Source: Kiritimatiellia bacterium | GTDB taxonomy: Bacteria > Verrucomicrobiota > Kiritimatiellia > RFP12 > UBA1067 | NCBI GenBank assembly: GCA_045641645.1 | Contig: JAZUHK010000047.1 | Coordinates: 51,316 to 115,315, forward strand | Length of the DNA: 64,000 bases | Direction of reading: 5' to 3' | In this document: positions 8,113-47,050 of the stretch, in pieces | Layout of the letters: the number at the start of each line of letters is the position of its first letter | How positions within the stretch are numbered: the stretch's first letter is position 1 | Translations under genes and position numbers: made by a program | The notes under the pieces: generated by a model | What the model saw: the letters and a program-made list of their open reading frames with translations, nothing else | Database searches by the model: none | Told to the model about the DNA's origin: nothing

Positions 8113-8141
8113 ATGCGTTGACTGCGAATTTGTTCTTGCAG

Positions 8142-28994: not shown

Positions 28995-29189
28995 ATGATC
29001 CGCCGCGCCATCCGTCTGGAGGGATTGGATGCGGAGCGGCGTTATCGGCTGAAGGAGATTAACCGCGGTGATCGCCTGCACGGGGATTTCGACGGCAAGG
29101 AGTTGACCGGCCGGGAGCTGATGGAGAACGGAGTTGTGGTGGAGATTGGCAATCTTTACGATTCAATGGCGATCGAACTTGCTCAATGA
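28995..29189 (+). other. Short ORF resembling the C-terminal beta-sandwich tail of a glycosidase; possible gene remnant
   Basis: 64 aa (…GDFDGKELTGRELMENGVVVEIGNLYDSMAIELAQ) with no upstream catalytic domain. Confidence 0.25.
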
Positions 29190-30341
29190 TGACGAGAAGA
29201 CGCGGGCGGGGGAACTTCTGATTTTATATTCCGACATGGTCACGCCGTAACGCGATTTGAAGCTGCGCATCAGCTGGGTGGAGGATCTCCAGCCGCAGAG
29301 ATTGGCGATGGCACCGAGCTTCATGTTCGGGCGGGAGAGAAGTTCCTGCACTTTTTCGAAGCGGGCGTCGAGAATGGCCGCGCCGATGCTTTTCCCAGTC
29401 ACCTCCAGAAACAGCTTTTCCGCAGTGCGTCGCGCTTTGCCCATCGCTTCCGCCACTTCGCTGATGCGGAGGCGGGTATCGGCGCGTTCGCGGATGAGCG
29501 TGAGCGCGCGGTTGACCGCCGCCGCGCCCAGCAAGGTCAGCGACGAATTGCGTCGCACGAGTGTCCGTGGCGGAATGTACGTGTGCCGCCGGCCGGCCGG
29601 CCGGTGTTCCATCAGCAGGGCGAGCGTCTGCGCGGCGGCCTCGCCGGCTTGTTCCATGTCCTGCTCGATGCTGGTGAGGGTGGGGTTCAGGTTCTCGCAA
29701 ATGGTCAGGTTGTTATCTACCGATACCACCTTGAGCTCGTGCGGAATCCTGAGGCCGCATTTTCTGGCGGCGGCATAAAGGGCGCTCGCCGCGAGATCGT
29801 TGACGGCAAAGGCGGCGATCGGAGGGTCGAGGCGGCGCAGGGCGGCGGCGATCTGGTCGCCGGACAGGATCGGATTGCCGTCGGTGGTTTCGATGAAACT
29901 TAAGGCGACCTGTCCGTGCTCGCATGATTTCGCGAAGGATGCGCGGCGCGCCTTGGACCAGGGGAGGTCGGATTGGACTGAAACGAAGATCGCCTGTGAG
30001 CCAGCGGCGGGGGCGAGTTCGTCGAAAGCCCGCTGAGCGATGACGGCGGCGTCACTTTCGACGGTATGGTATCGGCCCGGATGCGGGATGTTGGCATCGA
30101 GGAAGACGCGCGGCACTTTGGTGCCGGGGAGTTTTTCGAGAGCTTCGTTCGCGTGGTCGCCTTCGATGATGATGCCGTCGGGTTTGAGGGAGCGGCAGAG
30201 TTTGCGGACTTCGGCGGCAGGCGCCTCGGGTTCCAGGTAAAAGAGCTGCCACGCGGCGGCTTTGGCGACCCTGAACATGCCGATGAGTTTGTCGGCCTTG
30301 CGCATCTGGTTGGCATTGGTGAAGACGAGTACCTTTTTCAT
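29163..30341 (-). CDS. XylR-type hybrid regulator (PBP-like sensor + AraC HTH), paralog of 20399-21535
   Basis: MKKVLVFTNANQMRK… sugar-binding-fold N-terminus and a C-terminal …LGAIANLCGWRSSTQLMRSFKSRYGVTMSEY AraC HTH. Confidence 0.7.
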   Translation of the reverse strand: MKKVLVFTNANQMRKADKLIGMFRVAKAAAWQLFYLEPEAPAAEVRKLCRSLKPDGIIIEGDHANEALEKLPGTKVPRVFLDANIPHPGRYHTVESDAAVIAQRAFDELAPAAGSQAIFVSVQSDLPWSKARRASFAKSCEHGQVALSFIETTDGNPILSGDQIAAALRRLDPPIAAFAVNDLAASALYAAARKCGLRIPHELKVVSVDNNLTICENLNPTLTSIEQDMEQAGEAAAQTLALLMEHRPAGRRHTYIPPRTLVRRNSSLTLLGAAAVNRALTLIRERADTRLRISEVAEAMGKARRTAEKLFLEVTGKSIGAAILDARFEKVQELLSRPNMKLGAIANLCGWRSSTQLMRSFKSRYGVTMSEYKIRSSPARVFSSSLSKFDRH

Positions 30342-30436
30342 GCTGGAGGAGATTATAGCACATCATTTGCATAAAAGGATAGTAAAATAATTGCGTAATA
30401 CGCAATCTATTGACGCGGCAGAGATGGTAAAATGTC
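30312..30436. repeat. 125-bp block (regulator 5' end plus intergenic promoter/operator region); copy 1 of 2, second copy at 37517-37641
   Basis: About 96% identical to 37517-37641. Contains the perfect palindrome TTGCGTAATACGCAA (30391-30405) and TTGCATAAAAGG. Confidence 0.85.
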
Positions 30437-30472
30437 ATCACAATCAAAAGGATAAGAGAAAGGAAAGGGCAA

Positions 30473-33400
30473 ATGAAAGCTTATTCTCGCTTTTTGGGGG
30501 CTTGGATGTCCTGTGTCGGATTGGCGATAGCCGCACAGTCGCTCGCCGCTACGGGCTTACCCGAGGGCTATATCGAGCTTAGCTATATCAAATCGACGAG
30601 CACATCGTCGAATAGCGAAATCGCCCAGCAGTATCTCGATACGGGTTATACGCCGCAGGATGCCAAGTTGGGATTCGAGCTCGACTTCGTTTTTCATGGC
30701 GGCGTAAAGAAAAGCCCCGGGAACCGCATTATGGGTTCGAGCACCAAGAGCGGCAATTATGGTCTTTTCATCGGGGCTTATAGTGATCCAGCCCCTAGCG
30801 GTGGGGTTGGCGGGCAGTTTTACTTTTGTAATTCGCCCGTTAAGAACCCGTATATTAAGGGAGGTGTTCGTCAGTTGCTCGTCCTGCGAAATAAGCAGTA
30901 CTGGAGTTATGAAATTTCCGAGGACATTTTGAGTACGAATGAATTGGGCAAAATCGATTCCTTACCGGTACAGACGAGTAATTTGGGCTATGATGGATCG
31001 ATTTTGTTGGGATCGATTAAATGTGGAACCGAGAGAGCGGAACTTCGCGCCGTCTGCACTTTTTACCGCTTCAAGATTTACGATGGGGATACGCTCCTGC
31101 ACGATTTCGTGCCGGCGCTAAGTCCAGATGGTGTCGCTGGGCTTTATGATATTGTCGGCGAGCTTGGATTTAAGACGAGCAATGATCCAACTAATTATCC
31201 TTTTACCCCTGGCGACCCGGTTGATCTCGACGGTGGCACCGTGACGATCAATCCCGTACTCGTCGAGGCCACGATCACCGTGGCCGGAAGCGCGAAGGCA
31301 AGCGGGAGTTTCATCGAGGCGGGGTCGGAGGTGACGGTTACGGCGCATCCCCTCTTGGGCGGGGAGCGGGTGATCTCGTGGGAGAAGCCGCTACCTGCGG
31401 GGGCCGTCACTTCGATGTCGGGCGAGGATGCGGTATTGACTTTTACGATGGGCTTAGAGCCGGTCATAATCGGCGTAAGGTCGGTGGCGAATGTCAATAC
31501 GACCTTGCCGTCTGGGTATCGGTTACTTGAATATATCGAATCGACGGGAACGCAGTATGTGGATACGGGGGTTAAAATTGGAAGTGATGTCGCGATGGAA
31601 TTGGAGCTGGCGCTAACGCCGAATGAGACCGTCAACGATCAGTGCAACTACTCGGGCGCGGCGCTCAATCAATCGCAGGGATGGCTTTTGGTGGGCGATT
31701 ACGGCAAAGCCGAGAACAAGTTAGGCGCTTACTTCGCCAGGGGTACACGGGCTGGCGCGGAAATCGTCTATGATTCCGCTTTCCACTACTACTATTGCGG
31801 TGACGGCTTTCAGTGCGTGGATACGACTACGGCGAATAATTCGGCGACTTTTTCCAGTGAGCTCACGCTGTACCTTTTAGATGCCAATATCGAGTGGTCG
31901 CCGACGCATAGGCGCCGGCAGCGGCTTAAGTCGTGCATCATTTACGAGGATGGGGCGGTCGTGCGCAATTTCGTGCCGGCGCTGGAACTGGCTACCGAGA
32001 CCCCGGGGCTTTATGATGTGGAAAACGGAGCGTTTTACGGGAACGCCAATTCCAGTTCGTCGGATAAGTTTGCGTACAAGGAAGTGGAGGCACTCACGGT
32101 CGTCGGCAATCCGGTCGAGGTCGGCTCGCCGGTTCCCGATTATGGACTGGATCTGGCGGCGCGGCTGGACGAGGAGCGCACCTATACCTTTCCTAACGCG
32201 GGCTTCCCGTTTACCAATGCCGAGGAGACGGTCGTCTGTACGGGACTCAGCGGCTATACGCTCACTTTGAAAAACGGCGTCTCGTATTCGGGCGAAGGCA
32301 ATTCCACCTCTTTCGTTTATACGACGGAGCATTATGGGGCGACACTCGCGTGGAATTTCACCACCATCAGCCGCCTCACGTTTGCCGCGGCGGACGAGTT
32401 CGGTGCCGTCATTGGGGCAGAAGCGGGCTTTTATGCGCCTGGTACGGAGCTTACGCTGCGGGCGAAGCCCGTGCGGGAGGCGGTGTTCGCGGGATGGACG
32501 GGGGATGTCGATCCGGAGCACGCATTCGATAATCCGCTCACCGTCACGATGGGTTCGTCGCCGCTCAACCTCGTGGCGAATTTCCGTTCGAACACCCAGC
32601 CCACGGCGGAGGAGTGCTCGACGAAGGATCTCGTCGTTTCGATTATCGGCGACAGCTACAGTTCGTTTAGCGGCTATAATAACTTAGGCACGCCGTATTA
32701 TCCCGCTCGCGATGTCACTTCGGTCGAGCAGATGTGGTGGCGTAAGGTAATCAAAAACCTCGGGGCGAAGCTGGGGGTCTGCGATGCCTCTGGCGGGACA
32801 ACGCTCGGTTATAAGACGAAGAGTTCCTCGTTCCTTTCGCGAGTGCGGAAACTGGACGATGGCGCGAACGGTACGCCCGATATCATCTTCGTCTTCGGTG
32901 GGGCGAATGATCAGGCGCAGGGCGCGGGGCAGGGCGATTACCTTTACGATCCCACAACTTGGAATAATACGACGCTCGCCAGTTTCCGTCCCGCCTGCGC
33001 GGCGATGATCAATCACCTCCGTAATCTCTATCCCAAGGCGCGGATTTATTTTGTCGTCAATGCACCGGCGACTTCGGATACCGATATCTACCTTCAGCCC
33101 GCATATATCGATTCGATGACCAACGTCTGTGCGCATTGCGGAGTGCCGTATATCGAGCTTCACGATATTGATCGCGTAGAACGTCATCCGACGGCGGCTG
33201 GGATGGCGGCCATCGCCGAGCAGGTGACGGCGTTCGTCCAGGCGGATTTCGCCGCGCGCGCGACCTACGGTTATCAGGATAAGCTGTTTTATTCGAATGA
33301 CTCCTCTTTAAGCTGCCAAAAGGTGGGTAAGGAGTATGTCTATATTGCCACCAATACGGATCGCCGCATTACGCTCGTGGCGCGGCGCAATCTGGAGGTT

Positions 33401-34186
33401 AGGCGCTCGCTGGTGGTGGGCGGTGGCGGCGCGGGAGGCGCGACCATTGGCGGCGGCGGCGGTGGCGGCGGCGTGACGGAGGCAACGTATGCCGAGGGAG
33501 GTTTCCTGGTGAAGAAGGGCGAGCGGCTGACGCTGGTCGTGGGCGCGGGCGGCGGATATGACGCGGTGGTGCCGGCGGAGGCCTCGGGTTCGCCGATCAC
33601 GGTCGGTCATTGGCAAAGGGGCGTTAGCGGTACGGCGTCTCGGGTTTTGACTAATGGTGTTGAGCTCGCGTGCGCTGGCGGCGGTGGTGGTGGCGGCGGC
33701 TGGGAGAGTGTTGCTGGCGGTGCGGCGCAAGATGGCGCGAGTACTGGCGGCGGCGGTCGCGGCGGTGCAGCGGGAGCGGTTACCGGGGTTGGTCACGCGG
33801 GCGCGAATGGACCGAGTAACGGCAATGGCGGCGGTGGCGGCGCCGGGCTTGCGGGTGCGGCTTCAGGTGGCGGCGTGGGCGGCGCAGGCGGCGCGGGAGT
33901 CGAATCGGATATTACCGGTTTTGCGCTTGATTACGGCGCGGGCGGTGGTGGCGGTGCAGGTAATGGTAGCGGCCAGCCGGCGCAACCGGGCGCGGCGGGT
34001 GACGAAAGCGCTGGTGCAGGCGGTGCGGTCGGTGCGGTCGGCGGCAAGGGTGCTGACGGCTTGGGTGGCGGCGGTGGCGGCGGTGGCTACAACGGCACGG
34101 GCTATGTCGGCGGCAAGGGCGGCAATGGTGCGGTTATTTTGCGGGTGCGCTCGAAGGTCGAGGGGACGATATTGTTCTTAAGGTGA
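30473..34186 (+). CDS. Very large secreted modular protein (1237 aa): repeated type-A and type-B modules of unknown function, GYxFxGW repeats, an SGNH/GDSL hydrolase domain, and a ~240-aa Gly-rich tail
   Basis: Signal peptide. Module motifs include QYLDTGYTP…RIMGSS…YRFKIYDGDTLLHDFVPA…GLYDIVGELGFKTS and YRLLEYIESTGTQYVDTGV…HYYYCGDGFQCVD…VVRNFVPA. SGNH blocks IIGDSYSSFSG, FVFGGANDQ, DIDRVERHPT. Tail GGGGAGGATIGGGGGGGGV…. Confidence 0.6.
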   Translation: MKAYSRFLGAWMSCVGLAIAAQSLAATGLPEGYIELSYIKSTSTSSNSEIAQQYLDTGYTPQDAKLGFELDFVFHGGVKKSPGNRIMGSSTKSGNYGLFIGAYSDPAPSGGVGGQFYFCNSPVKNPYIKGGVRQLLVLRNKQYWSYEISEDILSTNELGKIDSLPVQTSNLGYDGSILLGSIKCGTERAELRAVCTFYRFKIYDGDTLLHDFVPALSPDGVAGLYDIVGELGFKTSNDPTNYPFTPGDPVDLDGGTVTINPVLVEATITVAGSAKASGSFIEAGSEVTVTAHPLLGGERVISWEKPLPAGAVTSMSGEDAVLTFTMGLEPVIIGVRSVANVNTTLPSGYRLLEYIESTGTQYVDTGVKIGSDVAMELELALTPNETVNDQCNYSGAALNQSQGWLLVGDYGKAENKLGAYFARGTRAGAEIVYDSAFHYYYCGDGFQCVDTTTANNSATFSSELTLYLLDANIEWSPTHRRRQRLKSCIIYEDGAVVRNFVPALELATETPGLYDVENGAFYGNANSSSSDKFAYKEVEALTVVGNPVEVGSPVPDYGLDLAARLDEERTYTFPNAGFPFTNAEETVVCTGLSGYTLTLKNGVSYSGEGNSTSFVYTTEHYGATLAWNFTTISRLTFAAADEFGAVIGAEAGFYAPGTELTLRAKPVREAVFAGWTGDVDPEHAFDNPLTVTMGSSPLNLVANFRSNTQPTAEECSTKDLVVSIIGDSYSSFSGYNNLGTPYYPARDVTSVEQMWWRKVIKNLGAKLGVCDASGGTTLGYKTKSSSFLSRVRKLDDGANGTPDIIFVFGGANDQAQGAGQGDYLYDPTTWNNTTLASFRPACAAMINHLRNLYPKARIYFVVNAPATSDTDIYLQPAYIDSMTNVCAHCGVPYIELHDIDRVERHPTAAGMAAIAEQVTAFVQADFAARATYGYQDKLFYSNDSSLSCQKVGKEYVYIATNTDRRITLVARRNLEVRRSLVVGGGGAGGATIGGGGGGGGVTEATYAEGGFLVKKGERLTLVVGAGGGYDAVVPAEASGSPITVGHWQRGVSGTASRVLTNGVELACAGGGGGGGGWESVAGGAAQDGASTGGGGRGGAAGAVTGVGHAGANGPSNGNGGGGGAGLAGAASGGGVGGAGGAGVESDITGFALDYGAGGGGGAGNGSGQPAQPGAAGDESAGAGGAVGAVGGKGADGLGGGGGGGGYNGTGYVGGKGGNGAVILRVRSKVEGTILFLR

Positions 34187-34190
34187 GGTG

Positions 34191-37100
34191 ATGGTTGATG
34201 GTCGGTGTTTGGGGGCGCTTTTGGGCGGCGTTGCCTTGGCGGTGCTGTCGGCCGTCGGCGGCGGGCTGCCGGATGGCTATGTTGAACTCACCTGCATCAC
34301 CTCTGACGGCAATCAATACCTGGATACGGGCTATACGCCGACATCGGTCGACTTTGGCTTTGAGCTGGAGTTCACCTTCAAGGGAACGGTCGGAACGGGT
34401 GGCACGCGCATTATCGGCTCCTCGACGCGGAAGGGGACGAACCCAGGCGTTTTTGTCGGCAGCTACCAAGGTGCTGCGGCTTCGTCGGGCGGTCAGATGT
34501 GGTTTTGCGGCGCCTGCGGAACCGGCAATCCGGGGATTGTCCCCAACCGCTGGATGTCGATCTCGCTCAAGCGCCGGCGCTACACGGCCAGCTCGGCCAG
34601 CACGTCTACGACCGTTGACTTGAGCGGGGCTTCAGATACGAGCGGGCTTGCCGGTTCCGTTTGGCTTGCGTCGGTTCACCAAAGTTCAGACAATAGGGCG
34701 CATTCCCCCGGCGACTGGTATCGGCTGAAGCTTTACGAGGGCGATGCGCTGGTGCATGACTTTGTGCCGGCGAAGGATTCCTCGGGGCAGGTAGGCCTCT
34801 ATGACGTGGCTGGCAATCTGGGCTTTAGGACGAGCGCGGTTTCCGGCAAGCCCTTTATCGCCGGGGCCGAAGTGGAGAGCGGCTCTGAAGATTCGTCTGC
34901 GCGGGTCGTTAAGGTTGACAACGAGTGGTATTATGAAGGTTCGATTGCGGGCGATCCGTCGGGTGACTACCTGCCAGACACCAATCTGACCTTTACGGCG
35001 GTGGCGAACGAGGGCTATCGCTTTGCCGGTTGGTCGGGCGATGTCGGCGCGGCTGAAATCGACGGGAACACGGCCGTGGTCAGGGTGACCGGCGAGTCGC
35101 CGCGGGGCATCGCGCTTTGGGCGAACTTTGAGAAGCTTCCCTGTCCGCATGTCTTCTCAATGTCGATCAAGGCGACGAGTTTTGCCGCGGGCGGCGACCT
35201 GGTGAATGAGGGTCGCCGGGATGAACTGATCGGCTGGCTTTTGGCGAACGGCTTCACGAAGGTCTACCTTGAGACCTACCGGCACAATGTCTATGCGCCC
35301 ACCGAGCTTTTGGCGACGGCGAGCAACGAGTTTGCGGCGGCGGGACTTGATGTGTGCGGGCTCATCACCCCGACTTGCCTTGACCTGGATCCCTCGGCGA
35401 CGCCGGTGAGCGGCAGCTATGAAACGTGCTTCAGCAATCCGTTCGCCCGCGAGCGGCTCTCGAATGAAGTGGCGCGGTGTGCGCGGCTTTTCAACACCAT
35501 CCTCTTTGACGACTTCCTCTTCGCCTCGTGTCAGCAGAGCTGCCCTCATTGCCGCAGCACATCGGTCGAGTTCCGCACGGAGCTCGTCAATGCCGTCTGC
35601 CGGGAGATCTTGGCGACGGCGAGGGAGGTGAACCCCCGCTGCCACTGCATCATCAAGTATGCCAACTGGTATGACCTCTGGACCGGCAGGGGACTGAACC
35701 CCGCCTTGCAGACCGCCATCTTCGGCGAGTGCTGGGTGGGGAGCGAGACGCGCGACGCAGGCAGCGATCCGCTCTGGGCCTGCAATGCCTATGACTATCT
35801 CAATTCGCGCTGCGGCGGGCGTTGCGGCGGCGTGTGGTTCGACCCGCTTGATTCGACGCCCGCCAAGTATGTGGAGCAGGCCTACTACTCGATTCTTTCG
35901 GGTGCGCCGGAGTCGCTGTTCCATTGCTTTGACTACATGCTGGCCGACAACGGCGGCACGACGCCCTATGGCGAGAGCTTTAAGGACGCCTATAAGTGTA
36001 CGGATCTCCTGGAGGAGCGCATGGAGGAGCTGCATGCGCTCGCCGATTTTTGCGATGCGGCCGAACGCGGTGAGGTGAAGAAGCTTTCAAACGGCATCTC
36101 GCAGCATTACTACACGCTGGACGGCGCCACTTATGTCGCCCGGGTCAACACAAGCAAGATGCAGGCGGGCGACGAGTTCGGGGTCTTGGCGCCGAACCAG
36201 TTCGGCTTCCCCTTGCTGGTGGCGGAGGCGACGGACGAGGATTGTCCTGACGAAGCGGAATATTTTGAGGATGGGCGGTATATGCGCGTACAGCATGTCT
36301 ATTCGGAAGATGGCGGCAATGGCTTTACCGCGAGCACCGAAAATTACATTGATACGGGCTACACCCCCGCTTCCACGAGCGTGGGCTTCTACTTTGACTT
36401 TGTCTTTGACGGCACAATTGGGACGGATGCGCCGCGAATCATGGGATCTTCAATCAGGGATAAGAACAACAACTGGGGCGGTCTTGAATTGGGCGCTTAT
36501 AATTCAACTGGCGGCGGCGAGTTCTTTGCCTTCGGCCACGGGCCCCAAGAGCTGGTCAATCCGCGCCTGCGGTCGGGCTGCCGCATGACGCTGGATTTCC
36601 GCAACGGCATTTTGCTCGCGGCGGATGGCGGCAGGGTGGACCTTTCGGCGCATCATGTCGATACGGATTTCAACGGGAACATTTGGATCGGCTGCGTTCA
36701 TTCGCCTGACTATGGCACGAAGAAGGGTTGTGCGCCTTTGAAGGTCTACCGTTACAAAATTTACGAGGGCGACGAGGTCGTCCATGATTTTGTGCCGGTG
36801 AAACGGGTGGAGGACGGAGCCGCCGGGCTTTACGACCTGGTGGGCGGGAAGGGCTTCCGGGTGGGAACGGGGTTTAAGGCCGGCACTTGGACGCCCCGGT
36901 CGAGCCGGGGCGCTTTCAGGCAGCTTCAGTATATCGAGTCGGACGGGCTGCAGTATTTTGACTTGGGCGTTCCGACGGCGACTAATGTGGCCTTCGAAGC
37001 CGAGATGGCGTCGGTTTACGAGGAGTCGACGGAGAACAACTACATCGGCGCGGTCTATGGCAGCAGTTCGGGCTGGATGGCGATTGGCGACTATGGAGAA

Positions 37101-37517
37101 GGGAAGCTCGTCTCCTATTATGCGACCAAGAGCCGGCAGGGAACTGGCGTCGAGATCCCCTATGATACGCTCTTCCACCATTACTATTGCGGGAACGGCT
37201 TGCAGGTGATTGACGGCGTGACCAATCACACGGTCTCGGCCAAGATGCCGGACAACGTCGCCACGGTCAACCTGTGGGCGTTTAAGGCGAATCTCACCTT
37301 CAGCGGCAGTTCCATGGCGAAGCTGAAGATCAAGTACCTGAATGTCTATCTGAACGGGGTCTTGGTTCGCCAGCTCGTGCCCGTCAACGCCGGCGGGCGG
37401 ATTGGCATGCTCGACAAGCTTAGCGGCCAGTTCTACCTGAACGAGGGCGCGGGGAGCTTTGCCGCCGGCCCTCCCTGCGCGAAACGGGGCTTGATCATCC
37501 GCTACCTTGGCCGTTAG
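34191..37517 (+). CDS. Very large secreted modular protein (1109 aa), paralogous modules to 30473-34186 plus a Cys-rich central domain
   Basis: YVELTCITSDGNQYLDTGYTP…YRLKLYEGDALVHDFVPA…GLYDVAGNLGFRTS, GYRFAGWSGD, a central …VYLETYRHNVYAPTELL…CPHCRS… domain, then a second A module (YRYKIYEGDEVVHDFVPV) and a B module (LQYIESDGLQYFDLGV…HHYYCGNGLQVIDG). Its start overlaps the upstream stop. Confidence 0.6.
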   Translation: MVDGRCLGALLGGVALAVLSAVGGGLPDGYVELTCITSDGNQYLDTGYTPTSVDFGFELEFTFKGTVGTGGTRIIGSSTRKGTNPGVFVGSYQGAAASSGGQMWFCGACGTGNPGIVPNRWMSISLKRRRYTASSASTSTTVDLSGASDTSGLAGSVWLASVHQSSDNRAHSPGDWYRLKLYEGDALVHDFVPAKDSSGQVGLYDVAGNLGFRTSAVSGKPFIAGAEVESGSEDSSARVVKVDNEWYYEGSIAGDPSGDYLPDTNLTFTAVANEGYRFAGWSGDVGAAEIDGNTAVVRVTGESPRGIALWANFEKLPCPHVFSMSIKATSFAAGGDLVNEGRRDELIGWLLANGFTKVYLETYRHNVYAPTELLATASNEFAAAGLDVCGLITPTCLDLDPSATPVSGSYETCFSNPFARERLSNEVARCARLFNTILFDDFLFASCQQSCPHCRSTSVEFRTELVNAVCREILATAREVNPRCHCIIKYANWYDLWTGRGLNPALQTAIFGECWVGSETRDAGSDPLWACNAYDYLNSRCGGRCGGVWFDPLDSTPAKYVEQAYYSILSGAPESLFHCFDYMLADNGGTTPYGESFKDAYKCTDLLEERMEELHALADFCDAAERGEVKKLSNGISQHYYTLDGATYVARVNTSKMQAGDEFGVLAPNQFGFPLLVAEATDEDCPDEAEYFEDGRYMRVQHVYSEDGGNGFTASTENYIDTGYTPASTSVGFYFDFVFDGTIGTDAPRIMGSSIRDKNNNWGGLELGAYNSTGGGEFFAFGHGPQELVNPRLRSGCRMTLDFRNGILLAADGGRVDLSAHHVDTDFNGNIWIGCVHSPDYGTKKGCAPLKVYRYKIYEGDEVVHDFVPVKRVEDGAAGLYDLVGGKGFRVGTGFKAGTWTPRSSRGAFRQLQYIESDGLQYFDLGVPTATNVAFEAEMASVYEESTENNYIGAVYGSSSGWMAIGDYGEGKLVSYYATKSRQGTGVEIPYDTLFHHYYCGNGLQVIDGVTNHTVSAKMPDNVATVNLWAFKANLTFSGSSMAKLKIKYLNVYLNGVLVRQLVPVNAGGRIGMLDKLSGQFYLNEGAGSFAAGPPCAKRGLIIRYLGR

Positions 37518-37641
37518 CATTGGTGAAGACGAGTACCTTTTTCATGCTGGAGAAGATTATAGCACACCATTTGCATAAAAGGATAGTAAAATAATTGCGT
37601 AATACGCAATCTATTGACGCGGCAGAGATGGTAGAATATGT
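37517..37641. repeat. Second copy of the 125-bp promoter/operator block, including the palindrome TTGCGTAATACGCAA at 37595-37609
   Basis: Begins exactly at the stop codon of the upstream gene and ends at the start of the downstream gene. Confidence 0.85.
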
Positions 37642-38840
37642 TGACACCTAAAATGGGATGGAGTATGATTCTACTGATAGCTACGATTTTTTCGATGTCC
37701 TTCAAGGTGACCGCGCTCAACGGCGAGTTGACGCGCCCGGGAGTGAAGGAGCGGGCGGCGGCTTGGCTCAAGACGCATCACATCACCAAGGTCTATTTGG
37801 AGACCTACCGTCACGCCGAGTATGTGCCGACTGAGCGGCTGGTCGCCTATCGGGACTGGTTTCGGACGAATGGCTTCGAGGTGGCGGGACTGTTGACCCC
37901 GACGATGCTCAACGATCCGGAAAAGCCAGGGGAAAAGCCGCCTTACTGTTGCTGTTGGAGTGATCCTAAATGCCGCGAGCGATTAGCGGCAGAGTCCGTG
38001 CGCGCGGCGGGCGTTTTCGATACGGTGCTGTTGGATGATTTTCTCTTCGATTGCTGCACCTGTCCGCGTTGCACGCGGCTTAAGGAGGAGAGCGGCAAGT
38101 CGCTGGACGATTTTCGCTTCGACCACATGGAGGATCTTTGCCGTAAGGCGATCTATGAGCCCGCGAAGGCGGCGCATCCGAAGAGCCGCTTCATCATCAA
38201 GTTCCAGTGCTGGTATAAGGGGTGGTCCACGTCGGGGACGGATCCGAAGCGGCTCACTAATGTCTTCGGCGCGTGTTGGATCGGCACCGAGTCGCGTGAC
38301 AATTGTGACGATCCGATGCAATCGGCGTGGATTACGCCGTATGTGGACGATTTGACGGGCGGCCGTTGCGAGGGCTGCTGGTTTGATCCGCTCGACTCGA
38401 CGCCCGAGCGTTATGTGCAGCAGGCGCGCTATACGATTCTCGGCGGTACGCGGGAAACGCTTTTCCACGCTTATGACTATCTGCTCGCCGAAGACCCCGG
38501 CGGCGTGCCGTTCGGGCAGAGCCCGAAAGGCGGTCACGCATGCCGCGCGGCGCTGGAAGCGGAGATTGACGGGCTCTGGCGTCTCGCGGAGATAGTGGGA
38601 CCGCTCAGGCCCGTTGAGCAGAAGTTGGAGCCAAATGGCGTCTCGCGGCATCTTTTCCGCGAGGGCCAAACGCTCTATACGGCTTATCAGAATACAACCA
38701 ATGAAGCGCGAGCGGTGGTTATGCCGGCGAGAGCAAAGGTGAGCTTGATTCTACCCGACGATTCCGGCTACGAGCCGTCCACGGTGGTGCTTAAGCCGCA
38801 TGCTTTCGTGCTGTTTGCGCATCCGGTGGTGCAGAAGTAA
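37638..38840 (+). CDS. Standalone paralog of the Cys-rich central domain of 34191-37517 (unknown function; possibly a TIM-barrel glycosidase-like fold)
   Basis: …ITKVYLETYRHAEYVPTERL…CCCWSDPKCRERL…LLDDFLFDCCTCPRCT…CWIGTESRD…GRCEGCWFDPLDSTPERYVQQARYTILGG… aligns with residues ~330-640 of the upstream protein. Confidence 0.55.
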   Translation: MLTPKMGWSMILLIATIFSMSFKVTALNGELTRPGVKERAAAWLKTHHITKVYLETYRHAEYVPTERLVAYRDWFRTNGFEVAGLLTPTMLNDPEKPGEKPPYCCCWSDPKCRERLAAESVRAAGVFDTVLLDDFLFDCCTCPRCTRLKEESGKSLDDFRFDHMEDLCRKAIYEPAKAAHPKSRFIIKFQCWYKGWSTSGTDPKRLTNVFGACWIGTESRDNCDDPMQSAWITPYVDDLTGGRCEGCWFDPLDSTPERYVQQARYTILGGTRETLFHAYDYLLAEDPGGVPFGQSPKGGHACRAALEAEIDGLWRLAEIVGPLRPVEQKLEPNGVSRHLFREGQTLYTAYQNTTNEARAVVMPARAKVSLILPDDSGYEPSTVVLKPHAFVLFAHPVVQK

Positions 38841-38976: not shown

Positions 38977-39070
38977 ATTTGGCATGAGAGCATTGCGTAA
39001 CTTCATGTCCAATCGCGGTTATCAGCTGATCAGCAGGGTTGTACGCCGTGCGTTCTTGCTTGACCCTCGA

Positions 39071-41320
39071 ATGCTGATAACTTTCATGGCCGCGGCCTTG
39101 GCCGCGGGAGTGTCCGCGGCGGAAGCGCCGCAGGAAACGCCGCTCGCGGCGCCGGATCTGTTCATCGGCACGCAGGGGCTCGGGCATGTTTCGCCGGCGG
39201 CGGCGTGGCCGTTCGGCATGGTGCAGGCGGGGCCCGATACGTCGAAGACGCCGGAGCGCTATTTCGGCGATTGGCCGCATACCTGCGGCTACCAGCATAA
39301 TGACCGGTTCCTCTGGCGTTTCTCGCAATGCCGGTTCTACGGCATCGGATGCGGCTCGATGGGATTCTTCGGGCTGTTGCCGTCCGCGAGTCCCTTTGAT
39401 GCGGCGAATCACGCCTATGCGAAGGAGATGGACAAGGCGACCGAGAAGGCCATTCCCGGATACTACACGGTGACGCTGAAGGAGGGGAAGGTGCGTTGCG
39501 AGATGACGGCGCTCGCCCGTTCGGCGGCGTATCGTTTCGACTTCGCTCGCGGCGGCCGCGCCTATCTTCTGGTCGATCCGGGATGGGGCTGTCAGCTGGA
39601 CGAGCCGAAGCGCAGGGTGGATATGGCCGGTATCGACGCGTGCTTCGGCCGTTACGTGCTCGACTCAGAAGCGCGCGTTCAGACGCCGACGCGCCTTGCC
39701 TTGCACACGCGGCAGATGGATTGGAATGACGTTGAATGCTGGGGCGTCGCCGAGCTCTCTTCGCCGATCGTCTCGTCCCGGAAACTTCGCGCGGCGAAGT
39801 TTCCGCATGGCGAGATCGTCGAATACGGCTTCGACCTGCCGACGAACGGCGTTTTGGAGGTGCGACTCGCCTTGTCCCGCACGTCGATTCGGGCGGCGGC
39901 GAAGAATCTGGCATCGGAGATGCCGGACTTCGATTTCGACGGGGCGAGGGCGAAGGTCGCCGCCGAATGGAAACGGCGGCTATCGGCGCTTAGGCTCGAT
40001 CCGGCGACGCCAGAGCCGGTGAAGACGATCTTCGAGTCGGCTTTTTACCGCACGATGATCCATCCGAGCGATCTTGGTGATGTTGGCGGTAAGCGCGCTT
40101 ATTCCAATCTCTCGCTCTGGGACATCTTCCGCTCCTGTTCGCCGCTGCAGACGATCTTCGCGCCGGAGGTGACAGGCGGACTTGTCGAGTCGATGTGCGA
40201 TATCTTCGACCGTCAGGGGTATCTTCCGATTCTGCATACGTGGGGCGTCGATAACCACTGCATGATCGGGCATCACGCGGTGCCGATCATCGTGGACGCC
40301 TATCTTAAGGGCATCGGCGGCTTTGACGCCGAACGCGCTTACGAGGCGGTGAAGGATTCGCTGACCGTGATGCATGTGAAAGCCGGTAACGGCACTTGGG
40401 GGCTTTTGAAGGAGGATTGGGATGTCTATGACGCCTACGGCTACTATCCGTTTGACAAGTTGACCGGCGAATATCACGGGCAGGTGGTGAAGGGCGAATC
40501 CGTCTCCCGTACGCTCGAGTGCGCCTACAATGACGCCTGCGCGGCGAAATTCGCCGCGGCGCTCGGCAAGCGGGAGGACGCGGCGTTTTTCGCGAAGCGC
40601 GCGCAGAGCTGGAAGAACGTCTTCGATGCGTCCGTCGGCTTCATGCGCGGCAAGGATTCGAAAGGCCGCTGGCGCGAGCCGTTCGACCCGAAGTCGTGCG
40701 GCGCGGGGCCGTGGGCGGAGAACGACTTCACCGAAGGTAACTCCTGGCAATATACGTGGCATGTGATGCACGATATCCCGGGGCTTGTCGCGGCGATGGG
40801 CGGCAAGGAGAAGTTCGGCGCGAAGCTGCAGGCGCTCTTTGAGCAGACGGACGAGGTTTACGGCAGTTCGTTCACGCACGATGTCTCGGGGCTGATCGGG
40901 CAGTATGCGCACGGCAACGAGCCGAGCCATCATGTCGCGTATCTCTTTCGCTGGTCGGACCGTCCGGAGAAGACCGATGAATACGTCGGCCGCATCTGCC
41001 GCGAGCTTTACGGGCCTAAGCCGGACGGCTGTTGCGGCAATGACGATTCGGGGGCGATGGCGGCGTGGTATGTCTTTTCGGCGCTCGGGTTCTATCCGGT
41101 GGATGCCTGTGGCGGGGAATACGTCATCGGCGCGCCGCAGGTGCCGGGTGCGACCTTGCGGTTGCCGAACGGCAAGGTGTTCAGGATGGAAGCGAAGGGA
41201 TTCGGTGGGGAGAAGAGGTATGTGAAGTCGGTGACTTGGAATGGGCGCAAGATTGTGAATTGGCGTTTTCGGCATGAGGAACTGTTGGCGGGGGGAGTGC
41301 TTGGTTTTGAGTTGGAGTAA
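39071..41320 (+). CDS. GH92 family alpha-mannosidase (secreted)
   Basis: Signal peptide MLITFMAAALAAGVSAAEA. GH92-like blocks …YSNLSLWDIFRS…, …HAVPIIVDAYLKGIGGFD…, …GNEPSHHVAYLF…CGNDDSGAMAAWYVFSALGFYPV…. The ORF track offers an earlier ATG at 38984. Confidence 0.65.
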   Translation: MLITFMAAALAAGVSAAEAPQETPLAAPDLFIGTQGLGHVSPAAAWPFGMVQAGPDTSKTPERYFGDWPHTCGYQHNDRFLWRFSQCRFYGIGCGSMGFFGLLPSASPFDAANHAYAKEMDKATEKAIPGYYTVTLKEGKVRCEMTALARSAAYRFDFARGGRAYLLVDPGWGCQLDEPKRRVDMAGIDACFGRYVLDSEARVQTPTRLALHTRQMDWNDVECWGVAELSSPIVSSRKLRAAKFPHGEIVEYGFDLPTNGVLEVRLALSRTSIRAAAKNLASEMPDFDFDGARAKVAAEWKRRLSALRLDPATPEPVKTIFESAFYRTMIHPSDLGDVGGKRAYSNLSLWDIFRSCSPLQTIFAPEVTGGLVESMCDIFDRQGYLPILHTWGVDNHCMIGHHAVPIIVDAYLKGIGGFDAERAYEAVKDSLTVMHVKAGNGTWGLLKEDWDVYDAYGYYPFDKLTGEYHGQVVKGESVSRTLECAYNDACAAKFAAALGKREDAAFFAKRAQSWKNVFDASVGFMRGKDSKGRWREPFDPKSCGAGPWAENDFTEGNSWQYTWHVMHDIPGLVAAMGGKEKFGAKLQALFEQTDEVYGSSFTHDVSGLIGQYAHGNEPSHHVAYLFRWSDRPEKTDEYVGRICRELYGPKPDGCCGNDDSGAMAAWYVFSALGFYPVDACGGEYVIGAPQVPGATLRLPNGKVFRMEAKGFGGEKRYVKSVTWNGRKIVNWRFRHEELLAGGVLGFELE

Positions 41321-41421: not shown

Positions 41422-43203
41422 TCAGTCGTCGAGCGCGCGGAGATCGAGCTTAAGGACCTTCGCCGCCGAGCCCTGGCGCTGGCCCGGCTCTTGCTTGGCT
41501 CCACTGACGTATTCGCGCCCCATTACCGCATTGGTGGGAAGCCCCACGTCGCTCGGCAGATCGGCGGGATTCGCGATGCCGATCGTCACGCACACGATGA
41601 TCTCCTTCTGCACCTTCTGGCGGCTCTTCCAGCCGAAGAGCTTCGGACCGATCCACGGGATCTTGCGGAGATAGGGGATGCCGGAATCGACATCGTCCTC
41701 CACGGTGCGCGAGAGTCCGCCGATGACCGCCGTTGAGCCGTCCTTCATCGTGAACTCGGTGGTGATGCGCTTCATTGCGATTACCGGGAAGAGCCCGTAG
41801 GAACTGTCGCTCTGGATGTTGTAGAAGCCGGTGGCGGTGGTCTCGGTATCGAGTTGCGAAATGGTGGGGATGATCTCGACGGAAATGAGACCGTCGGGCG
41901 AGATGCGCGGCTTGACGCTCAGCTCGATGCCCCACTGGTAGAAGCAGGAGCCGGAGAAGAGCGCCTTGTCGCGGTAGTCGAGCTCTTTGTGCCCGCGCTC
42001 GCCGGGGATCTCCTGGATCTCGGCGGCAGTGTCGAGATAGGCGCCGTAGCTGGTGTCGTTGCGCTGCGAGGTGAGTTTCACGTTCGGAAACTTGGTGGTC
42101 ATATCGACGACGGCCTCCTTGCCGTTGGAGACGATGACCTTCGGGTTGGAGAAGATCCTGCCTTCGCCGAACTCCTCGAAGGCCGAGAGTGCGAGGCGGA
42201 AGTCGTCGGCGGAGAGCTGGCCGGAAAAGCCGGAGGCGTTGCGCCAACCCATCGATTCCGCCGAAAGCCCGGCGCCCGTCGCTTCCTTGATGGCGTCCGG
42301 GCGCAGAAAATTCGCAGTGGTATAGTCGCGTACGGACTTGCCGTCGGAGATGTCGTTGCCTTCGGCATTGAACTGCTTGGGCTGGTAGAAGTGGTCGGAC
42401 TTGCCGTTCGAATAGTGAGCGGCCTTGCCGCTGTTGAATTCGATGCCGCCGGAGATGTTCTTGGCCGTCATCCCCCAGCTTTCGAGCTGGTTCCACTGGA
42501 TGCCCAGCTTGTGCATCGCCTCGCTCGAAAGTTCGAGGAAACGCGCCTCGATGTAGATCTGGGCGACGGCCTTGTCCACGGCCTTGACGATCGATTCGCA
42601 GTCGGCGATGGTCTTTTCGGTGGCGGTGACGACCACCACGTTGGCGCCCGCGAAGCAGGTGGCGACGGGAATGGTGATTTCGCCCTTGTCGTCCTTCTGG
42701 CCGTAGGACTGGTTGAAGAGCACGGTCAGCTCGGAGGCGGAGGCGTGATTGAGCGTGAAGGTCTTGGTGAGGATGGGATCCGCGACCTTGTCTTCCTTGA
42801 CGAAGTAGATTTCGCCGCGTTTCTCCAGCCGATAGTTGCGCGAATTGAGGATCGACTGAAGGGCGTCGAACCAGGGGACACGGTGAAGGTTCACCGAGAC
42901 GCGCCGCAGGAGGTTGGTGGAATCGTCGGAGATGATGTTCGCATCCGTCACCTTGCGGAACTGCCGCAGGACATCGGCCAGCGTGGTGTCGTCGCAGGCG
43001 ATATCGACGAGCGTCGTCGCCGCCGGCGAGTCGAGCCGCGAGATCCGCGCCTGATGCGCGGCATCGGCGGAATCGTCGATTTCCCCGAGATCGATCACGT
43101 CGGCCTTCATCTCTACGGCGGCGGCCGGGGTGACGGCGCTTTCTTCGGCGAAGGCGCCGAAGCAGGCGAGCAGCAAGGCAAAGAGGACGTGTTTCTGGTT
43201 CAT
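41422..43203 (-). CDS. Secretin (GspD/PilQ family outer-membrane channel)
   Basis: Signal peptide, N-domains, and a C-terminal secretin block …VIGGLSRTVEDDVDSGIPYLRKIPWIGPKLFGWKSRQKVQKEIIVCVT…. Confidence 0.8.
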   Translation of the reverse strand: MNQKHVLFALLLACFGAFAEESAVTPAAAVEMKADVIDLGEIDDSADAAHQARISRLDSPAATTLVDIACDDTTLADVLRQFRKVTDANIISDDSTNLLRRVSVNLHRVPWFDALQSILNSRNYRLEKRGEIYFVKEDKVADPILTKTFTLNHASASELTVLFNQSYGQKDDKGEITIPVATCFAGANVVVVTATEKTIADCESIVKAVDKAVAQIYIEARFLELSSEAMHKLGIQWNQLESWGMTAKNISGGIEFNSGKAAHYSNGKSDHFYQPKQFNAEGNDISDGKSVRDYTTANFLRPDAIKEATGAGLSAESMGWRNASGFSGQLSADDFRLALSAFEEFGEGRIFSNPKVIVSNGKEAVVDMTTKFPNVKLTSQRNDTSYGAYLDTAAEIQEIPGERGHKELDYRDKALFSGSCFYQWGIELSVKPRISPDGLISVEIIPTISQLDTETTATGFYNIQSDSSYGLFPVIAMKRITTEFTMKDGSTAVIGGLSRTVEDDVDSGIPYLRKIPWIGPKLFGWKSRQKVQKEIIVCVTIGIANPADLPSDVGLPTNAVMGREYVSGAKQEPGQRQGSAAKVLKLDLRALDD

Positions 43204-43703
43204 TGGCCGGATCCTTTCTCTTCCGGGGAGGTTGGGATTTCGCGCAATTTGACGCGCAGAAGCTTCAGGGTGTTGGTTGCCGCCGACATCTGGAGGCGCC
43301 AGGTGAAGCGGTAGCCATTGTGGTTGACGGAAATGAGGTCGCCGTCGGCATAGACCTTGCCGTTGACGGTGACGGCCGAACGGCCGGCGTCGGCGTCGGT
43401 TCTCAGGGTGCTGCCGAATCTGAGCGTCTTGCGCGCCCGCGTCCAGAGGCGGTCGATGCCGGGGCCGTCTGCCATGTTGACGGGCTCGAATTCGGCAGCG
43501 GCCGTGGCGGTGACATTGGTGGCGGCGGTTTTCGTGTCGGGCGCTGCCGCCGGAGCCGCAATCCGGACCTGCGGGTCCTCGACGATCGCTTCGCGTTCGC
43601 CGACGTAGCCCTCCGGCCAGAAGGGATTGCGCAGCGGCGTGGCGGCGGCGAGGAGCGCGGCGAGGAGCATGGTCATCGGACGGCTCCTTTCTTCATGGGC
43701 CAT
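43200..43703 (-). CDS. PilP-like pilus assembly protein (hypothetical)
   Basis: Small protein with signal/lipoprotein-like N-terminus and a beta-rich C-terminus, encoded between the PilO-like gene and the secretin (pilMNOPQ order). Confidence 0.4.
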   Translation of the reverse strand: MAHEERSRPMTMLLAALLAAATPLRNPFWPEGYVGEREAIVEDPQVRIAAPAAAPDTKTAATNVTATAAAEFEPVNMADGPGIDRLWTRARKTLRFGSTLRTDADAGRSAVTVNGKVYADGDLISVNHNGYRFTWRLQMSAATNTLKLLRVKLREIPTSPEEKGSGQ

Positions 43704-44260
43704 TCGAAAACGAAGGTGATCTGCTGCAGTTCGGGATCGGCCGTCGCCGTGACCGAGAGCGCGGTGAGGGATACGAGCTCGAAGCGCTTTTCCACGCAGC
43801 GAACGAGGGATACGGCCGCTTGGTAACTGCCGCGGCAGGTGATCCGGATCGGTTCGCGCACGAATTGCTCCTGCGCGGCGAGACCGAAGACGGGCAGTGC
43901 GACGGGTTCTTGGGCCTCGTACTCGAGATTGATGAGCCCGCAGCCGGTGGCAAGCGGATCGATCAGCGCCTTTGCGCGCATGGCCGTCGATTCGAGGAGG
44001 GGCGTCATCAGCCCCGCATCGTAGGTAGCGCGGCGGACGGATTTCTCGTTCAGCCCGCGGAGGATGATCTCCTTTTGCGCGAGATCGTCAAGGACGGTGC
44101 GCTGGCGGACGATCTGCTCTTCCAGGACGGCGTGGGCCGCCGTCAGGTTGAGATCGGCAGGTTCGATGACGCCGAAGTAGAACGCCGCGCCGACGACGCC
44201 GAAGGCGAGCGTGAGCAGGAGGGATTGCCGGGTGTCTGGCGGCCTTAGCTGGAGTTTCAC
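43673..44260 (-). CDS. PilO-like inner-membrane pilus assembly protein
   Basis: GTG start 8 nt after an AGGAGG RBS, single N-terminal TM (LLLTLAFGVVGAAFYFGVI) then a coiled coil. The longer ORF start at 44791 lacks an RBS and overlaps the PilN-like gene. Confidence 0.5.
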   Translation of the reverse strand: MKLQLRPPDTRQSLLLTLAFGVVGAAFYFGVIEPADLNLTAAHAVLEEQIVRQRTVLDDLAQKEIILRGLNEKSVRRATYDAGLMTPLLESTAMRAKALIDPLATGCGLINLEYEAQEPVALPVFGLAAQEQFVREPIRITCRGSYQAAVSLVRCVEKRFELVSLTALSVTATADPELQQITFVFEWPMKKGAVR

Positions 44261-44913
44261 GGCGTGAACCTCCTCTCCTGGACGAGATATTCGATATCGA
44301 AGACGAGTTTCCGCTGTTCTTCGCCTTTCTTCGGCAGGTCCTGCTTGAACGCCTTGACCCGCGGACTGACGATCCCTTCTTCGGGATGCTGACAGACCTC
44401 CAGCAGGTTGGTGAAGGGCTCGGCCGTGAGCGAACGCATCAGCATAAGCACCGGCTGTTCCTGCGGGGTGCGCCCGACGAGCGAGAAGGTAGTGCGTTCG
44501 ACATATCCCGTCGATGGCTCGGCAATCTCCGGCAAGGCCGGCGGCGGCATCGAGAGGGTGACGAGCTGGACTTGCGGCGGCATCACTTCGGCGAGCGCGC
44601 CGAGCGCCGAACCGACGCGGCGAACCGATTTGCGGTAGCAGTCGAGCTGCTCCAGCTGGGCATCGAGCTCGTTGGCTTCCGCCATCAGCTCGATGATCTC
44701 CTGGTGGGGATTGGTCTGTTGGACGAGCTCTTGGTCGATCCGTCCGCTCATGGACTTGGTGAGCATCAGCTGCCCGACGAGGATCGCCCACCAGATGACC
44801 AGCCCCACGCAGGCGAAAAGCGCGAAGATTGGAGCCATCACGCGGAAGCGGACGGGCGAGGAGCTCACGCGCTCCGAAGGACGGAGGAGATTGAGATGAA
44901 GCGGCGTCTTCAT
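44257..44913 (-). CDS. PilN-like protein
   Basis: N-terminal LNLLRP-type motif, one TM (MAPIFALFACVGLVIWWAILV), and a coiled coil. Confidence 0.5.
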   Translation of the reverse strand: MKTPLHLNLLRPSERVSSSPVRFRVMAPIFALFACVGLVIWWAILVGQLMLTKSMSGRIDQELVQQTNPHQEIIELMAEANELDAQLEQLDCYRKSVRRVGSALGALAEVMPPQVQLVTLSMPPPALPEIAEPSTGYVERTTFSLVGRTPQEQPVLMLMRSLTAEPFTNLLEVCQHPEEGIVSPRVKAFKQDLPKKGEEQRKLVFDIEYLVQERRFTP

Positions 44914-45965: not shown

Positions 45966-46003
45966 CAGCGGAAAATATTATACCAAAAATTCGGGCACAA
46001 AAT

Positions 46004-46012
46004 ATGGTATAA
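46004..46012 (+). promoter_or_regulatory. Extended -10 TGGTATAAT upstream of the response-regulator gene
   Basis: aaatatggtataatgttcg, ~12 nt before the ATG. Confidence 0.4.
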
Positions 46013-46023
46013 TGTTCGCCGAC

Positions 46024-46545: not shown

Positions 46546-46626
46546 TTCTTCATCACGAAATTTGCTACAATGTCTTTCGTAATCGGCAAAGTGTCGGTTG
46601 CGGCTACAAAAAAGGAAAAACAAAAA

Positions 46627-46989: not shown

Positions 46990-47011
46990 CCCGCTTTGCT
47001 TAAAGGGATAA

Positions 47012-47050
47012 AAAAGAGGAGCGGATTTTCAAGGTCTGCTCCTCTTTTTG
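47012..47050 (+). terminator. Rho-independent terminator (stem agaggagc / gctcctct, 15-nt loop, TTTT)
   Basis: aaaaagaggagcggattttcaaggtctgctcctctttttg. Confidence 0.7.

Follow-up and report, generated by a model that had tools for sequence, protein, structure and literature searches.

Two neighboring genes of a Kiritimatiellia bacterium, probably from the gut, here called ORF A and ORF B (ORF, open reading frame), share a protein domain that is likely a glycosidase: a short form of the Pfam family PF28584, built as a glycoside hydrolase (GH)-type barrel on a clan GH-A-type scaffold, remotely related to GH42 and GH164 and probably using the catalytic positions of clan GH-A. Both genes lie in a 64,000-nucleotide (nt) stretch of contig JAZUHK010000047.1 (positions 51,316 to 115,315), referred to below as the window, and each probably encodes a GH42-related predicted glycoside hydrolase, a new member of a catalogued, apparently uncharacterized family. 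A tblastn search of the window for copies of the domain, together with the ORF list, placed the shared material as follows:

34188 to 37517, forward strand: ORF A, a modular protein of 1109 amino acids (aa) with a GTG start at 34188 (from the ORF list).
35151 to 36209, forward strand: the embedded copy of the domain (GH_cat), ORF A aa 322–674, a barrel plus beta-sandwich (tblastn).
37638 to 38840, forward strand: ORF B, a standalone GH_cat protein of 400 aa from the ATG at 37638 (AlphaFold mean predicted local distance difference test [pLDDT] 94.1, predicted template modeling [TM] score [pTM] 0.91).

A preliminary description of this DNA had proposed that a cysteine-rich domain occurs both within a giant protein and as a standalone paralog, and the comparison bore this out: aa 322–674 of ORF A align with aa 17–378 of ORF B in one strong BLASTP segment, with 144 of 367 positions identical (39%, E = 3e-82). 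All of the longer motifs it had quoted were recovered (VYLETYRH, (F/L)DDFLF, C(W)(V/I)G(S/T)E(T/S)RD, and WFDPLDSTP). It had put the homologous block in the right place, at residues ∼330–640 of the giant protein, but the aligned block is longer (about 322–674); likewise, its end coordinate for that protein (37517) stands, whereas the start it gave (34191) does not, as the listed ORF A begins with the GTG at 34188. The "CCCW" it named as a common motif fell away, with only the third Cys (C106 of ORF B, equivalent to C414 of ORF A) conserved between the copies. The strength of the match, together with the retention of all invariant residues described below, rules out a pseudogene or chance similarity. 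No third copy of the domain was found by tblastn in the window. Several antisense ORFs of 228–338 aa overlie the two genes (35157–36035, 36504–37520, and 37983–38669, all on the reverse strand); these are taken to be the usual high-GC artefacts and not genes.

As judged from sequence, the domains of ORF A and ORF B are members of PF28584, a family catalogued by the newest Pfam. The hidden Markov model (HMM) for this family is absent from our local Pfam copy, and membership was read from the precomputed matches of near-identical proteins. One protein that is 95% identical to ORF B (P0001) carries PF28584, and a member of its 90% identity cluster (P0105) is identical to ORF B from M10 onward. 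Three orthologs of ORF A (P0107, P0108, and P0109, at 98%, 55%, and 51% identity) carry precomputed matches to PF28584 and PF18998. Every one of the 63 ORF B homologs retrieved from a large protein collection has a precomputed PF28584.1 match, and distant homologs of 580–630 aa have PF28585 and PF27250 in addition. In the gene tables the three families go by GH_cat (PF28584), GH_C (PF28585), and SSO3021_2nd (PF27250). Searched as single sequences against the local Pfam-A (2025 copy), NCBIfam, and PDB sequences, the shared domain had no match, and the family profile retrieved only one insignificant match among PDB sequences, the GH164 enzyme Bs164 (E = 0.15, mainly via its middle domain). The earlier statement that the domain belongs to no named family therefore holds for these three resources and not for the newest Pfam, with its PF28584 "GH_cat." No confident assignment to a characterized family emerged, PF28584 itself appearing to be a predicted and uncharacterized one.

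The family is large and widely distributed. An HMMER scan of 1.84 billion representatives returned 1666 clusters (50% identity) at E ≤ 1e-3, of which 461 had E ≤ 1e-30, and species-representative genomes held at least 570 PF28584-type loci. Members were found in Kiritimatiellae, Planctomycetota, Verrucomicrobiota, Acidobacteriota, Bacillota (Cohnella, Gorillibacterium, and Lachnospiraceae), and Bacteroidota, under source-database names of "hypothetical protein" or a stray "permease." The closest homologs in the species-representative genomes were from Kiritimatiellae (44%–47% identity). Most members are three-domain proteins of 510–630 aa; the short form of ∼400 aa is a minority, seen among the Kiritimatiellae-like closest relatives.

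For structural modeling and conservation analysis we aligned ORF B and the ORF A domain with 49 database homologs (51 sequences in total). The AlphaFold model of ORF B, a check that the preliminary description had recommended, is confident and consists of a (beta/alpha)8 barrel followed by a C-terminal beta-sandwich:

37686 to 38597, forward strand: the (beta/alpha)8 barrel of ORF B, aa 17–320 (DSSP on the AlphaFold model).
38607 to 38825, forward strand: the C-terminal beta-sandwich of ORF B, aa 324–396 (AlphaFold secondary structure).

DSSP assigned the eight barrel strands of the model to residues 17–22, 51–58, 81–86, 129–132, 184–189, 213–216, 244–249, and 273–276 (strands 1–8). Fourteen columns are invariant across the 51 sequences (K51, E55, F127, D133, D134, K188, W192, G200, G216, E218, R220, G246, W248, and D250 in ORF B numbering), and neither ORF B nor the domain of ORF A has lost any of the 14 or any of four conserved cysteines. 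Their placement is suggestive of an active site. D133 and D134 (strand 4), E218 and R220 (strand 6), and W248 and D250 (strand 7) stand at or just after the C-termini of their strands, which form the usual active-site face of triosephosphate isomerase (TIM)-barrel enzymes; W192 is in the loop after strand 5, and the near-invariant R58 ends strand 2. The carboxylates that would be candidates for catalysis, whose conservation had been singled out as worth checking, are thus invariant (D133, D134, E218, and D250) and present in both copies. The corresponding candidate site of ORF A comprises C414, D441-D442, C448/C452/C455, E520, R522, W550, and D552.

A comparison of the models with the PDB by Foldseek (best 50 matches listed per model) supported the same assignment. 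Each of the 50 matches listed for the ORF B model was either a barrel of GH type or the ectodomain of 4F2hc, which is GH13-like; the families among them were GH13 (including 4F2hc), GH30, GH35, and GH36. These partners are barrel-plus-sandwich glycosidases, with no solved structure being close (best E = 1.6e-11, TM-scores of 0.42–0.57, root-mean-square deviations of 7–10 Å, and identities of 8%–14%). The TIM-barrel, glycosidase-like fold suggested in the preliminary description is therefore supported by a confident model, and the esterase activity it offered as an alternative for the shared domain found no support.

The position of the family within glycosidases became clearer from its full-length members. 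The AlphaFold model of one long homolog (P0062; pLDDT 91.2) retrieved GH42 structures first (3tts, E = 1.5e-20; also 5dfa, 4oif, 5e9a, 8ibr, and 4uoq), and among the matches listed its top TM-scores, 0.61–0.64, were with the GH164 beta-mannosidase Bs164. Next came exo-beta-D-glucosaminidases (6jow, 8oug, and 5gsm/5gsl), which we take to be GH35, followed by the GH5 enzyme Op5Man5 and GH167. All of these structural matches have the GH42-type architecture of barrel, middle domain, and sandwich.

A second line of evidence is a cysteine cluster around strand 4. In GH42, the acid/base motif is N147-E148, the nucleophile is E305, and a structural zinc is held by C113, C153, C155, and C158, in a C...CxCxxC pattern (PMC8573354). 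ORF B has the parallel layout C106 ... D133-D134 ... C140-x-C142-x-x-C145, and its four cysteines are conserved family-wide, in 94%–96% of the 51 sequences. The corresponding sites in the window are as follows:

37953 to 37955, forward strand: the codon of C106, which would supply the first ligand of a Cys4 zinc site, in the loop between strand 3 and helix 3 (96% conserved; hhalign).
38034 to 38072, forward strand: D133-D134 and C140-x-C142-x-x-C145, the putative acid/base doublet and zinc ligands (conservation; hhalign).

The spacing is CxCxxC in ORF B and CxxxCxxC in ORF A, which carries a two-residue insertion, and ORF B lacks three extra cysteines found in the short clade (positions 83, 230, and 278). 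We then compared the family profile by hhalign with a GH42 alignment seeded from a bona fide GH42 gene that adjoins a family member in one locus (L075) and has precomputed PF02449, PF08532, and PF08533 matches. A single local alignment was obtained (P = 9.5e-4, score 38.5), pairing the first Cys of the two families, the Asp-Asp doublet with Asn-Glu, and CxCxxC with CxCxxC, and continuing to strand 5. Reversed profiles scored about 20, and 30 column-shuffled profiles scored at most 26.4. Global and low-threshold hhalign runs were also tried and yielded no trustworthy alignment past strands 3–5. The equivalence to the strand-7 Glu of GH42 is ambiguous in sequence (D250 or D253); D250 was picked by its invariance and strand position. 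The conserved C106, C140, C142, and C145 are most likely ligands of a structural zinc, as in GH42, many but not all members of which have such a cluster. The suggestion of a metal- or disulfide-stabilized fold in the preliminary description is supported accordingly by four family-wide cysteines that recur in the pattern and position of the zinc cluster of GH42. A [4Fe-4S] site was also considered and is not favored, as the cysteine pattern fits the GH42 zinc cluster.

Under the glycosidase reading, the glycosidic bond would be cut at the C-terminal face of the barrel. D133-D134, after strand 4, would take the role of the GH42 Asn-Glu motif, with D134 as the acid/base, and D250, after strand 7, would be the nucleophile; the sugar would be bound by R58, W192, E218, R220, and W248. 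ORF A would display the domain on a modular protein that is secreted and probably associated with the cell surface, and ORF B would be a separate enzyme with no obvious signal peptide. Both copies would probably act on the same glycan as two neighbors described below, an esterase-domain (GDSL) protein and a GH92 enzyme, under the control of the adjacent regulator.

Several observations weigh against this reading. Our literature searches (on PF28584, SSO3021, "GH42-like," and new GH families close to GH42/GH164) turned up no paper about the family, and no characterized PF28584 member was found. Measured against the clan GH-A criterion, invariant carboxylates do end strands 4 and 7, but they are Asp in place of the hallmark Glu/Glu pair, with an extra invariant Glu after strand 6; we know of no clan GH-A family that has Asp in both catalytic roles. 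The best matches of the short-form model point to GH13/GH36 no less than to clan GH-A. The alignment from hhalign has a probability of only 22% and is confined to strands 3–5, and neither ORF A, ORF B, nor five other family members had a PF02449 match at E ≤ 0.1. Finally, a census of 103 operon-like neighbors in 80 genomes revealed no dominant partner family (ThiE/ThiD2, sulfatases, GH67N, GH92, and DUF4838 each occurred in only two to six loci), and for this reason we rejected any inference of the substrate from the census.

The layout of the invariant acids could also be read in the manner of clans GH-H and GH-D, with a strand-4 Asp (D133 or D134) as nucleophile, E218 as acid/base, and D250 as transition-state stabilizer, although we regard this as rather unlikely. 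GH13 enzymes have their catalytic residues as Asp after strand 4, Glu after strand 5, and Asp after strand 7, and GH27, GH31, and GH36 have Asp after strands 4 and 6; the family has invariant acidic residues after strands 4, 6, and 7, and the top Foldseek matches of ORF B were to GH13 (4F2hc, neopullulanase, branching enzyme, and isomaltulose synthases) and GH36. Those matches, however, have TM-scores of just 0.42–0.57, and the clan GH-A families GH30 and GH35 score as well. The full-length architecture of the family fits GH42/GH164 and not GH13, the Cys4 cluster and the Asp-Asp doublet align with the GH42 acid/base motif, and there was no Pfam match to Alpha-amylase or Melibiase.

Substrate-assisted catalysis of the N-acetylhexosaminidase type is a quite improbable alternative. 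Here D133-D134 would correspond to the catalytic pair of GH84 O-GlcNAcases, one Asp polarizing the 2-acetamido group and the other serving as acid/base, with no enzyme nucleophile and with D250 binding sugar hydroxyls. The catalytic pair of GH84 (Asp-Asp) and GH20 (Asp-Glu) does lie after strand 4, as the invariant Asp-Asp does directly in PF28584; an association with GH92 would suit N-glycan breakdown, and GH20b- and GH67N-type domains occur among the neighbors. Yet no GH84, GH20, or GH18 structure appeared among the best 50 Foldseek matches listed for either model, the local Pfam scan of the shared domain gave no match (its library presumably holds the GH20 and GH84 models), and the sole significant profile alignment pairs the doublet with the Asn-Glu of GH42. 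Neither a GH13/GH-D-like nor a GH84-like layout is favored by the one significant profile alignment or by the family architecture. That the domain is no hydrolase at all, being an inert glycan-binding or scaffold barrel or catalyzing other chemistry (phosphorylase, lyase, or esterase), strikes us as scarcely credible: the missing canonical Glu/Glu pair, the failure of our searches to find a characterized member, and the recurrence of the domain as an appendage of catalytic modules (GH92, GH43, and GDSL), as binding modules recur, would fit such a role, but 14 residues are invariant across phyla, mostly at the active-site face of the barrel, and most members stand alone in sugar-utilization operons, which an inert module would not account for.

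Returning to the glycosidase reading, we turned to the genomic context of the family. In the window, the two genes are flanked by the following:

29163 to 30341, reverse strand: a hybrid regulator of AraC helix-turn-helix (HTH) and periplasmic-binding-protein (PBP) domains (Pfam Peripla_BP_3 and HTH_18), divergent from the cluster.
30473 to 34186, forward strand: a modular GDSL protein of 1237 aa (Pfam Lipase_GDSL_lke, 4e-29) with X domains (see below), an InlB B-repeat, and a Gly-rich C-terminus.
38984 to 41320, forward strand: a gene of the GH92 alpha-mannosidase family (Pfam Glyco_hydro_92, 3e-149), immediately 3′ of ORF B.

The order is therefore AraC/PBP regulator (reverse strand), GDSL protein, ORF A, ORF B, and GH92, with the GDSL/SGNH esterase-like domain at aa 722–921 of the 1237-aa protein. 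Elsewhere in the family the domain is fused to GH92 (P0110 and L007), to GDSL esterase domains (P0111, P0112, and L005), to GH43 (L077), to a flavin adenine dinucleotide (FAD) oxidoreductase (L030), and to a beta-helix (L054). The gene order of the window is echoed in the fusions with GH92 and GDSL, an argument for a single substrate of all three activities. Long forms were seen in an operon with LacI, an ATP-binding cassette (ABC) sugar transporter, and hexokinase; in a sugar-sensing two-component locus of Cohnella; and next to GH42 and a ROK regulator. In a Bacillota metagenome-assembled genome (L075), a GH42 gene (5621–7684) immediately precedes a GH_cat gene of the long form (7908–9629) and a ROK regulator. 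The co-occurrence of two related families in one locus indicates that GH42 and GH_cat are probably not redundant there.

Upstream of the cluster are a second regulator and genes for Laminin_G_3, GH2, and GH39. The two AraC-HTH/PBP regulators are paralogous (20399–21535 and 29163–30341, both on the reverse strand), and each is divergent from a block of carbohydrate-active enzymes (CAZymes), an arrangement that suggests two regulons resembling polysaccharide utilization loci. Directly downstream of the CAZyme cluster (41422–48715) is a set of genes resembling a type II secretion system (T2SS) or type IV pilus, including a secretin (41422–43203, reverse strand) and a T2SSE ATPase (47048–48715, forward strand). 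This order is kept in a related locus (L004), for which the gene table additionally lists response-regulator, prepilin-type N_methyl, and T2SSF genes.

ORF A and the GDSL protein follow a common module plan of signal peptide, X domains of ∼200 aa, InlB B-repeat, and enzyme domain. ORF A runs from a signal-peptide-like N-terminus through an X domain, an InlB B-repeat (Pfam Flg_new_2 match at aa 250–301), the GH_cat domain, and two more X domains to a hydrophobic tail ending in Arg; the ortholog 98% identical to it (P0107) likewise combines PF28584 with an InlB B-repeat. The X domains were delimited as internal repeats:

34248 to 34892, 36273 to 36887, and 36888 to 37487, forward strand: X domains of ORF A (internal repeats).
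30539 to 31225 and 31493 to 32092, forward strand: X domains of the GDSL protein (repeats in common with ORF A).

X domains come in two subtypes, with a start motif LPxGY..L.YI.S.G.QY.DTG and a late motif Y(R/K)hKIY.G..LVHDFVP...G..GLYD. They had no Pfam match, and a search of PDB sequences gave only an insignificant match to a GH16 porphyranase (E = 0.057); the X domain is possibly a lectin-like jelly-roll. The C-terminal ∼250 aa of the GDSL protein (∼33430–34186) are extremely Gly-rich, with GGGGxG runs, and are encoded by DNA with families of imperfect direct repeats. Short hydrophobic tails closed by Arg were observed in ORF A (37488–37517), the GDSL protein (34160–34186), and the orthologs P0108 and P0109. 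The tails of these modular proteins end in GTILFLR, RGLIIRYLGR, GLVLILR, and GMLIFVR, each followed by the stop codon; they are too short for a PEP-CTERM-type helix and might act as a signal, specific to this lineage, for sorting or anchoring.

The start codon of ORF B is uncertain. There are three candidates (37638, 37653, and 37665), and the NCBI call for an identical protein corresponds to M10, at 37665 (391 aa). ORF B has no canonical signal peptide, its barrel beginning about 8–17 residues from the N-terminus; a signal peptide is present in a 77%-identical homolog (P0002) and in most short forms. The region of the start overlaps one copy of a direct repeat of 141 nt:

30309 to 30449, forward strand: repeat copy 1, at its native site between the regulator gene (29163–30341, reverse strand) and the GDSL gene.
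37513 to 37653, forward strand: repeat copy 2, between ORF A and ORF B, overlapping the first possible ORF B starts.

The two copies are 92% identical and comprise the opening ∼33 nt of the gene for the AraC/PBP regulator together with the divergent promoter region. Each contains the palindrome TTGCGTAATACGCAA (30391–30405 and 37595–37609), which occurs at only these two sites in the window and at none in the 89 loci that we fetched. Copy 2 looks like a duplicated promoter/operator placed before ORF B and GH92, and it may have supplied these genes with a further copy of the regulatory region of the cluster. Promoter-like sites were noted at 37614–37642 and 37641–37669. The latter, just after the repeat, is the closest fit to a sigma-70 promoter in the region (TTGACA-17-TATGAT, 11/12), with a −10 element that shares bases with the ATG at 37665. 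Were this promoter used, the transcript could begin downstream of all three ORF B starts (the next ATG is at 37695).

The two domains are, judging by their divergence, old paralogs within a glycan-utilization cluster, one of them taken up by a modular, presumably secreted protein and the other standing alone. A recent tandem duplication was ruled out by the 39% identity and by the separate clades that the copies occupy in a rough neighbor-joining tree. In the same tree, the embedded domains of ORF A and its three orthologs (P0107–P0109) form their own clade, and fusions arose several times. Locus L004, with an ORF B ortholog that is 95% identical, has the GDSL gene followed after 11 nt by that ortholog; ORF A and repeat copy 2 are both missing, an indel of about 3.46 kb (window ∼34203–37661 versus L004 3395–3420). 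A 98%-identical strain (L089) has the same arrangement as the window, and the 55%-identical ortholog of ORF A stands alone beside its own AraC/PBP-type regulator in another locus (L088).

The immediate gain is one of annotation, with both genes moving from "hypothetical" to "GH42-like predicted glycoside hydrolase (PF28584)." If active, the domain would represent a sizeable glycosidase family, of about 1700 clusters at 50% identity, without a known specificity, and the recurrent fusions with GH92, GH43, and SGNH esterases offer a concrete entry to substrate discovery. An Asp-Asp/Asp replacement on a GH42-like scaffold would interest CAZyme specialists mechanistically. A bolder proposal, which we hold to be doubtful on balance, is that PF28584 is a GH family that arose from the GH42/GH164 scaffold, keeping the structural Cys4 zinc site and adopting an Asp-Asp/Asp plus E-x-R machinery in place of the Asn-Glu/Glu of clan GH-A, and that in gut Kiritimatiellae its short form is an obligate partner of GH92 and SGNH esterases on an acetylated, mannose-containing glycan for whose degradation no enzyme is currently assigned. 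The replacement, if true, would imply a different substrate or mechanism, and the partner role is suggested by the gene fusions. The Asp-Asp/Asp candidates and the linkage to GH92 and SGNH esterases are the points most worth attention. Glycan degraders of the Planctomycetota-Verrucomicrobiota-Chlamydiota (PVC) group normally shuffle catalytic domains as modules, and our results do not challenge current understanding; they provide a useful enzyme lead within the ordinary biology of modular carbohydrate degradation.

Compared with the majority of PF28584 members (510–630 aa), the window copies are the short form, a barrel with a divergent beta-sandwich spanning about 360–400 aa. They are without the PF27250 middle domain of the long forms and have no PF28585 match, and the ORF A copy differs further from the usual members in being embedded in a 1109-aa modular protein. 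The two-domain layout is common to ORF B, to GH13-type barrels with a sandwich (the 4F2hc ectodomain, neopullulanase, and branching enzymes), and to the GH30 enzyme XynC. These differ from ORF B in showing no sequence-profile relationship, with TM-scores of only 0.42–0.57 and 8%–14% identity; the local Pfam scan gave no Alpha-amylase HMM match, the criterion for GH13, and the likeness is at the level of fold only. GH164 Bs164 (6t5o and 6t7g) has the best TM-score for the long-form model, with about 8% identity and an insignificant sequence match, and GH164 uses a Glu/Glu pair.

The closest parallel is GH42 (PF02449/PF08532/PF08533; 3tts, 4oif, and 5dfa), which has the barrel and the Cys4 pattern flanking the strand-4 motif as in PF28584, and whose three-domain architecture (barrel, GH42M trimerization domain, and beta-sandwich) is common to the long PF28584 members. 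ORF B and the ORF A domain lack the middle (trimerization) domain and pass from the barrel straight to the sandwich. Identity between the two families is about 10%; Asn-Glu is replaced by Asp-Asp and the Glu nucleophile by Asp, and strand 6 has an invariant E-x-R in PF28584 in place of the Tyr-containing motif of GH42 (WDxY in our alignment A5). These replacements, and the lack of a PF02449 match, set the family apart: PF28584 is not GH42, and its relationship to GH42 is remote but coherent.

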